This document shows positions 16,551 through 17,063 of a stretch of 64,000 bases of DNA, in pieces (position 1 is the first letter of the stretch; every line of letters begins with the position of its first letter). Made by a program: the position numbers and the translations under genes. Under the pieces are notes generated by a model that was given only the letters and a program-made list of their open reading frames with translations, was not told where the DNA came from and ran no database searches. The stretch is from assembly GCF_009931435.1 (NCBI RefSeq), contig NZ_CP043414.1; one strand, given 5' to 3'. This DNA comes from Escherichia coli (GTDB lineage Bacteria > Pseudomonadota > Gammaproteobacteria > Enterobacterales > Enterobacteriaceae).

Positions 16551-17063
16551 TTAGCTGAGGCGTTGAGGGCCAGCACGGATGCCTTGCGCCTGGCTTATCC
16601 AGACGGGCGTGCTGAATTTTGCTTGTGGGGTAAAATGCGCATAATCAATGCGATAACCCTTTTCAGACGGCGTGCCTTCCTGGGTCAACAGCGCGCTGAG
16701 CGTATCCAGTAATGCAAGATGTTGCGCCTGAAGAGGCAAAGATTCTTCAGCAACGGGCAGCGTTTGCGGTGCCATTGCGAAGGAAAGATGACGGATTACC
16801 GTGCGAATGGCATGTTGATGCCAGTAATCAACGGAATAGTTCGAATTCGGGCGGCGCGTGTTCGCTTCCAGCATGGCCAATTGACCAAAGTTAACTTTGG
16901 CTGAAGGCTCGTGGTTGCGGGTTGTCGCTTTTGCGGGCGCGTTTGGTTCGGCGGCGTTGCTGAGCGCAGGCAAACCTAAACTCGCCGCGACCATCCCTAA
17001 TAAGAGATGCGGCCAGAAGTAGCGTTTACCAAACTGTCGCCAGCGCGTCAGTATTCCACTCAC
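16551..17063 (-). CDS. secM: SecA translation regulator SecM (arrest peptide), 170 aa, GTG start
   Basis: Track ORF 16551..17216 trimmed to the GTG (reverse-complement of cac at 17061-17063) giving (M)[32 protein letters not shown]..., matching known SecM; contains [17 protein letters not shown]. Confidence 0.9.
16566..16616 (-). other. SecM ribosome-arrest motif [17 protein letters not shown] coding segment
   Basis: Motif read in the translated secM C-terminus; coordinates computed from the stop codon. Confidence 0.85.

Follow-up and report, generated by a model that had tools for sequence, protein, structure and literature searches.

The 64,000-nucleotide stretch of Escherichia coli DNA analyzed here (hereafter, the window) contains, at positions 16551-17063 of the minus strand, what we take, with a probability of about 0.97, to be the canonical E. 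coli secM gene, which starts at the GTG codon at position 17063 and retains the elements of its regulatory circuit intact. The gene, its GTG start and the SecM-SecA circuit are already known, and the circuit is a textbook case of nascent-chain-mediated regulation. Beyond annotation hygiene, the assignment is of little significance: a track that reports the longest ORF makes secM 51 codons too long, so that it takes in the secM promoter and reaches the lpxC terminator, and the correct GTG start is recoverable from comparative data, the strength of the Shine-Dalgarno (SD) match and transcription start site (TSS) data alone. The coordinates of the features discussed below are collected in Table 1.

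The minus strand of this region carries, in order, lpxC (18211-17294), a 230-nt spacer, the 170-codon secM, a 61-nt spacer and secA (16489-13784). With secA directly downstream on the same strand, across a short spacer, secM occupies the position that characterizes the long-type SecM; in the 23 other sequences in which the secA start was located (K-12 included), the secM-secA spacer is 57-68 nt long. The protein encoded in the window matches the Pfam family SecM (PF06558) with 195.6 bits (E 5e-58; cut-off 25) and the NCBIfam equivalog NF002799, 'secA translation cis-regulator SecM', with 231.7 bits (E 5e-69; cut-off 100), the latter alignment spanning model positions 1-168 of 169, with model position 1 falling on residue 3. 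With these scores, the match to SecM is not a matter of chance. A 921-nt query over the region found matches at at least 95% identity in 5424 of the 5426 complete E. coli genomes, and the best match was E. coli NZ_AP027764, at 99.9% identity. In the NZ_AP027764 strain and in K-12, where secM is b0097 (107705-108217), RefSeq gives a 513-nt secM CDS with the boundaries of the window gene, GTG start included.

Table 1. Features of the lpxC-secM-secA region of the window, in the direction of transcription
Feature	Positions	Strand	Details and basis
lpxC CDS, upstream neighbour	17294..18211	-	TAA 17296-17294; ORF list, RefSeq of matching E. coli records
lpxC intrinsic terminator	17215..17267	-	compound hairpin CGACUGG...CCAGUCG (17267-17224) followed by U9 (17223-17215)
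TTG opening the mechanical ORF of 221 codons, not a genuine start	17214..17216	-	last two U of U9 and the next G
secM-secA operon promoter, extended -10 element TGATAAGAT	17107..17115	-	TG at -15/-14, TAAGAT at -12 to -7
Dominant secM TSS	17100	-	K-12 107668, Cappable-seq score 307.5
secM 5' UTR, 37 nt	17064..17100	-	no in-frame ATG, GTG or TTG
SD-like GGGAUGG, 7 nt upstream of the GTG	17071..17077	-	duplex energy, conservation
secM start codon GTG	17061..17063	-	comparison, RefSeq, SD, TSS
secM CDS	16551..17063	-	170 codons and TAA (16553-16551); Pfam, NCBIfam, RefSeq
Signal peptide, residues 1-37	16953..17063	-	charge and hydropathy profile
In-frame ATG, Met24, not the start	16992..16994	-	no SD; codons 2-23 coding; first residue matched by PF06558
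Codon 64, ATG (Met); Leu in K-12	16872..16874	-	L64M
Arrest-stabilizing segment, residues 79-95	16779..16829	-	residues checked against the mutagenesis in PMC6993859
Arrest motif, residues 150-166, from F150	16566..16616	-	exact match
Repressing helix, 5' strand	16554..16567	-	second base of codon 166 through codon 170; MFE fold
Local hairpin CUCCGC-AAC-GCGGGG	16506..16520	-	constrained fold modelling the stalled ribosome; 3' arm common with the repressing helix
Repressing helix, 3' strand GCGGGGCGUUUGAG	16498..16511	-	includes the secA SD region (GAGA, 16500-16497)
secA CDS, 901 aa	13784..16489	-	ATG 16489-16487, 61 nt past the secM stop

For the comparative analysis of the start codon, a scan of reference genomes provided 23 full secM loci from Escherichia, Citrobacter, Salmonella, Enterobacter, Klebsiella, Phytobacter, Kosakonia and Buttiauxella, which together with the window and K-12 make 25 sequences. 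Drawn from about 10 genera, the 25 sequences without exception show GTG where their starts align. The in-frame stretch that is open before this codon varies from 0 to 56 codons and is not conserved in sequence; in four species (L014, L017, L019 and L023), an in-frame stop codon, TGA or TAA, directly abuts the GTG. Over the 20 triplets that precede the GTG, the entropy is flat (1.54/1.61/1.49 bits at codon positions 1/2/3), and over codons 2-23 it is 0.10/0.09/0.54 bits, so that the coding pattern begins at codon 2. Judged from the aligned sequences, the latter values are the signature of a protein under purifying selection, which is strong across codons 2-34.

The four in-frame candidate starts differ also in their potential to pair with the 3' end of 16S rRNA, and an SD match is present only at GTG 17063. 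The predicted duplex before this codon has an energy of -6.5 kcal/mol (about the top 10% of the local background), compared with -1.6 kcal/mol for TTG 17216, -0.6 kcal/mol for GTG 17138 and -0.7 kcal/mol for ATG 16994; in K-12 coordinates, these four candidates are 107705, 107552, 107630 and 107774, respectively. Although its sequence changes, an SD precedes the GTG in each of the 23 other species, with energies of -4.0 to -8.2 kcal/mol, and the G at -9 is invariant across the aligned sequences. In the recent cryo-EM entries 9vvi and 9xwo of the PDB, the nascent chain begins with MSGILTRW. The evidence for initiation at GTG 17063 (MSGILTRW...), comparative, SD and TSS, is indirect but convergent, and we regard this start as nearly certain. 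The first-pass annotation had placed the secM start at the same GTG (17063-17061), and RefSeq, conservation, the SD, codon periodicity and the TSS agree with it.

The same annotation described the ORF in the track as beginning 51 codons upstream of the GTG, at an ATG, and named initiation mapped to that ATG as the result that would refute its reading. The ORF does extend 51 codons upstream, to 17216, but the codon found there (17216-17214) is TTG, for which the track probably printed 'M'. The upstream ATG does not exist: no in-frame ATG precedes the GTG, and between TTG 17216 and GTG 17063 the sole in-frame ATG, GTG or TTG is the GTG at 17138. Were the TTG the true start, SecM would be a protein of 221 residues with a 51-residue N-terminal extension. 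It is true that no stop interrupts the frame between 17216 and the GTG, whether in the window, in the closest strain or in K-12, and that rare transcripts including the TTG could arise from a weak TSS (K-12 107495, score 4.9) or when the lpxC terminator is read through. The TTG, however, is the tail of the terminator U-tract, lacks an SD and lies upstream of the dominant TSS (score 307); in Escherichia relatives, single-base indels in the lpxC-secM spacer shift the frame of the upstream extension, and in most other genera the GTG is preceded by stop codons at a distance of 0-19 codons. Codon periodicity is absent from the extension, the Pfam and NCBIfam models gain no score from the long ORF, and 51 additional residues, without net charge, would bury a signal peptide that is needed at the N-terminus. 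Initiation at the TTG is thus barely conceivable; the 51-codon extension is non-coding intergenic DNA (lpxC terminator, promoter and 5' UTR) that by chance lacks an in-frame stop in E. coli.

The transcript structure of the region bears directly on the choice of the start. The lpxC terminator folds at -30.3 kcal/mol (z = -5.4; none of 200 shuffled sequences was as stable) and is conserved within Escherichia; it was found by folding and was not picked up by a simple terminator scanner, probably owing to an apical loop of 10 nt and to its internal loops. The extended -10 element TGATAAGAT is invariant in all seven Escherichia sequences and is correctly spaced relative to the dominant TSS. A strict consensus scan, which requires a -35 match, did not report this promoter, and its identification comes from conservation and published TSS data rather than from the scanner. 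In the Cappable-seq list for K-12 (PMC4782308, supplement 1), position 107668, with a score of 307.5, dominates over its neighbours, which score 2.2-4.9; the minor TSSs are 107495 (4.9), 107563 (2.2), 107678 (4.7) and 107697 (about 3). Transferred to the window via a gap-free alignment with K-12, the dominant TSS is position 17100, which is 7 nt past TGATAAGAT, with the TTG 116 nt upstream of it and the GTG 37 nt downstream; hence, neither upstream candidate is part of the main mRNA, in which GTG 17063 is the first in-frame start. The supplements of the SMRT-Cappable-seq paper contain no occurrence of secM. Two of the minor TSSs, at window positions 17205 and 17273 (K-12 107563 and 107495), flank the lpxC terminator, the former just past the U-tract and the latter just past the lpxC stop codon.

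Within the secM 5' UTR, an out-of-frame TTG (17089) and an out-of-frame ATG (17074) open ORFs of 9 and 4 codons, respectively. The shorter of these, ATG GCA ATA ACG TGA (17074-17060, minus strand), ends with a TGA that overlaps the secM GTG (GTGA), and Citrobacter and Salmonella have GTG at the position of its start. Considered as a regulatory uORF, this mini-ORF is probably incidental, given that its start coincides with the SD-like GGGATGG/GGGTGG and that it has no SD of its own.

Historically, the competing start was not an upstream codon but the downstream ATG at codon 24. Met24 was presumably the start in the original, pre-2000 annotation of the gene as 'gene X', and in 2000 Sarker, Rudd and Oliver reportedly revised the secM start by experiment. 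Translation from this ATG (16994-16992) would produce a protein of 147 residues, with the first 23 codons becoming part of the 5' UTR. ATG is the preferred start codon, Met24 is invariant in all 25 sequences, and the PF06558 model begins exactly at residue 24. Nevertheless, codons 2-23 evolve as coding sequence, at the entropies given above, and include the invariant residues W8, R9, Y15, F16, W17, P18 and H19 among others; no SD precedes the Met24 ATG in any species; and a start at this position would strip the signal peptide of all four basic residues of its n-region. NCBIfam, RefSeq and the PDB constructs all adopt the GTG form, and the title of Sarker et al. 2000, along with the later citation of that work for a signal at residues 1-37, shows that the field moved the start to the longer form. 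A Met24 start is, in our estimate, highly improbable, and initiation at GTG 17063 is the reading adopted in what follows. The two family models themselves differ, PF06558 starting at residue 24 and NF002799 at residue 3, and Pfam seems to keep the older, shorter annotation.

Translated from GTG 17063, the protein has a long, basic n-region (R7, R9, K13 and R14, with no acidic residues among residues 1-17) and, around residues 15-30, a hydrophobic core in which the Kyte-Doolittle mean over 11 residues reaches 2.1, followed by SNA/AEP. This charge and hydropathy profile is that of an N-terminal Sec-type signal peptide, as found in the long-type SecM, and together with the PDB chains that start with MSGILTRW it bears out the first-pass claim that this GTG yields the known SecM N-terminus with its signal peptide. 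Residues 1-37 are treated as the SecM secretion signal in PMC6993859, which cites Sarker et al. 2000 for this boundary.

The arrest motif, claimed to be intact at the first pass, proved to be so: residues 150-166 (16616-16566) match FxxxxWIxxxxGIRAGP, the definition given in PMC10951299 and PMC10987492, exactly, with Pro166 at the arrest point and the stop codon after residue 170, and this segment does not differ from the nascent chain as modelled in 8qoa and 9vvi. In the arrested state, Gly165 is in the P site and Pro166 in the A site (PMC10951299); the respective codons are 16571-16569 and 16568-16566. Upstream of the motif, D79, Y80, W81, H84, R87, I90, R91 and F95, which have been shown by mutagenesis to stabilize the arrest (PMC6993859), are all intact in the window SecM. 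Arrest, release by Sec pulling and induction of secA have been established for the K-12 allele, in which the motif is identical (PMC10951299). That SecM control of secA translation should be functional in the window, as the first-pass annotation held, is a reasonable inference, every needed sequence element being intact.

A stem-loop over the secA ribosome-binding site is described in PMC10951299 and PMC10987492, and folding of the window sequence predicts such an mRNA helix, as expected of a long-type SecM. The helix, formed by 16567-16554 and 16511-16498, is part of the MFE fold at -17.4 kcal/mol, and over 23 distinct sequences 91% of the cells are paired at this register, compared with 30-55% at slid registers. 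Across all 24 sequences, GGCGTTTGAGA varies little or not at all. An explicit count over the 23 distinct sequences found no pair with compensatory double changes, RNAalifold retained only a 6-pair invariant core of the secM-secA helix without covariation, and Rfam has no family for the secM-secA element. The lack of compensatory change is to be expected because coding and the ribosome-binding site also limit how the two strands can change; without covariation, the comparative data are compatible with the helix, that is, permissive rather than probative. When stalling was modelled by a constrained fold with the first 16 nt kept single-stranded, the probability that the secA SD is unpaired rose from 0.29 to 0.50, a change that lends modest support to the predicted exposure of the SD. 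The same constrained fold contains a local hairpin (Table 1), and in the alignment, read by eye, the corresponding stretch in Enterobacter (GCCC/GGGC) and in Buttiauxella (CUGCC/GGUAG) has a different sequence that can likewise form a hairpin.

Taken as a whole, these features suggest the following scheme. Transcription of secM proceeds mainly from its own extended -10 promoter, from the TSS at 17100, and initiation at the GTG yields the 170-residue secretory 'monitor'. As long as no ribosome is stalled, pairing between the final codons of secM (16567-16554) and the region of the secA ribosome-binding site (16511-16498) would hold secA translation at a low level. Once a ribosome reached Gly165/Pro166, the nascent arrest motif would halt elongation; since the 5' strand of the helix starts at the second base of the A-site codon, this strand must be covered when a ribosome stalls at Gly165, and the secA SD would be freed so that secA could be translated. 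Pulling on the signal peptide (residues 1-37) by SecA/SecYEG would then release the arrest, and secA translation would track the secretion capacity of the cell. SecM arrest, disruption of the stem-loop and release by Sec pulling are described in PMC10951299 and PMC10987492.

K-12 SecM (b0097, NP_414639.2) shares with the window gene the lpxC-secA locus, the GTG start, the length of 170 codons, the 61-nt spacer, the signal peptide and the arrest motif, and the two proteins are identical in 168 of 170 residues, the window protein having L64M and T170S. In this comparison, residues 1-165 were aligned with the PDB 'Secretion monitor' chain 9vvi_6, and residues 166-170 were set against the C-terminal residues of K-12 SecM. 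At the nucleotide level, the window differs from K-12 by 5 substitutions in the 230-nt lpxC-secM spacer and by one (G/A) in the secM-secA spacer. Residue 64 lies within segment 57-73, where single substitutions caused no marked change in the duration of arrest (PMC6993859). Codon 170 is ACC in K-12 and AGC in the window (16554-16556); among the 24 other sequences, 22 have Ser170 (21 with AGC, one with AGT), so that the K-12 ACC (Thr) is the unusual, minority state. The predicted repressing helix of K-12 has an energy of -13.6 kcal/mol, making that of the window 3.8 kcal/mol more stable, because the AGC codon adds two pairs.

These differences might be taken to mean that secM regulation in the window departs from that in K-12 through L64M, T170S and the G/A substitution in the spacer, for example, through a tighter helix and a lower basal level of secA. 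Apart from the more stable predicted helix, this possibility is favored by the location of L64 in the region 57-98, the deletion of which shortens the arrest (PMC6993859). Against it, Ser170 is the commonest state among the compared sequences, with K-12 being the unusual one, the residues known to matter for arrest are all unchanged in the window SecM, and an allele, WP_039021823.1, is annotated at the same coordinates in a strain that is 99.9% identical over the queried region. We consider altered regulation unlikely: as far as can be judged from the sequence, L64M and T170S look benign, and nothing suggests that the canonical control of secA is changed. Most work on the system has been done in K-12, whose predicted repressing helix is the weaker one, by about 3.8 kcal/mol.

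A more speculative idea concerns the start codon itself. GTG is retained in all 25 sequences, which are phylogenetically related, although ATG is one transition away, and the SD is moderate (-4 to -8 kcal/mol) and variable in sequence; the GTG might therefore be invariant as a selected part of the circuit, with sub-maximal initiation on secM limiting the queuing and collision of ribosomes. If this were the case, the GTG could help to avoid collision-dependent rescue or mRNA cleavage behind the arrested ribosome and could set the gain of secA induction. The identity of the start codon is often conserved among orthologues anyway, and we consider such selection unlikely. In a lesser variant of the idea, the 4-codon out-of-frame mini-ORF could modulate initiation.

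Several observations were made elsewhere in the window and in the genome scan. The Rfam family PssrA ('Plasmid-encoded Shigella sRNA A', RF02797) has a full-length match of 105 bits at 19455-19544 (minus strand), at the junction of the 3' end of ftsA and the start of ftsZ, and the family name is ill-suited to a chromosomal cell-division locus. A match to STnc40 (77.6 bits, 13740-13808, minus strand) spans the secA stop (13784) and the spacer before mutT (start 13725). Also above the Rfam gathering thresholds are the tp2 sRNA (1805-1918, plus strand), the leucine operon leader (41043-41192, plus strand), SgrS (45951-46177, minus strand) and a TPP riboswitch (47934-48033, plus strand). The scan further returned a 287-bp contig, NZ_JAGEMM010000126.1 (L026), which is labelled as Microvirga antarctica, an alphaproteobacterium, and contains a SecM fragment with 71% identity at a coverage of 0.6; most likely, this fragment represents enterobacterial contamination of that assembly.

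Among the known systems close to the window gene is also the small-type SecM (PF10818/NF038363; about 100 residues), which plays the same role upstream of secA and for which the experimentally studied example is the SecM of Mannheimia succiniciproducens. The window SecM shows weak N-terminal similarity to the small-type models (E 6e-4 and 1e-5), below both curated cut-offs. The median distance from the signal to the arrest sequence is 131.5 residues in the long class versus 71 in the short class (PMC10987492, which catalogues roughly 626 SecM homologues), and on the sequence features described above the window protein is a long-type SecM. Other arrest peptides that monitor Sec or YidC, namely VemP, MifM and ApdA/ApdP (the latter with RAPP motifs), follow the same logic, whereby stalling on an upstream ORF exposes a downstream ribosome-binding site and the export machinery releases the stall, but they are unrelated to SecM in sequence and regulate other genes (secDF2, yidC2). 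At the peptidyl-transferase centre, RAG/P and RAP/P take similar conformations (PMC10951299).
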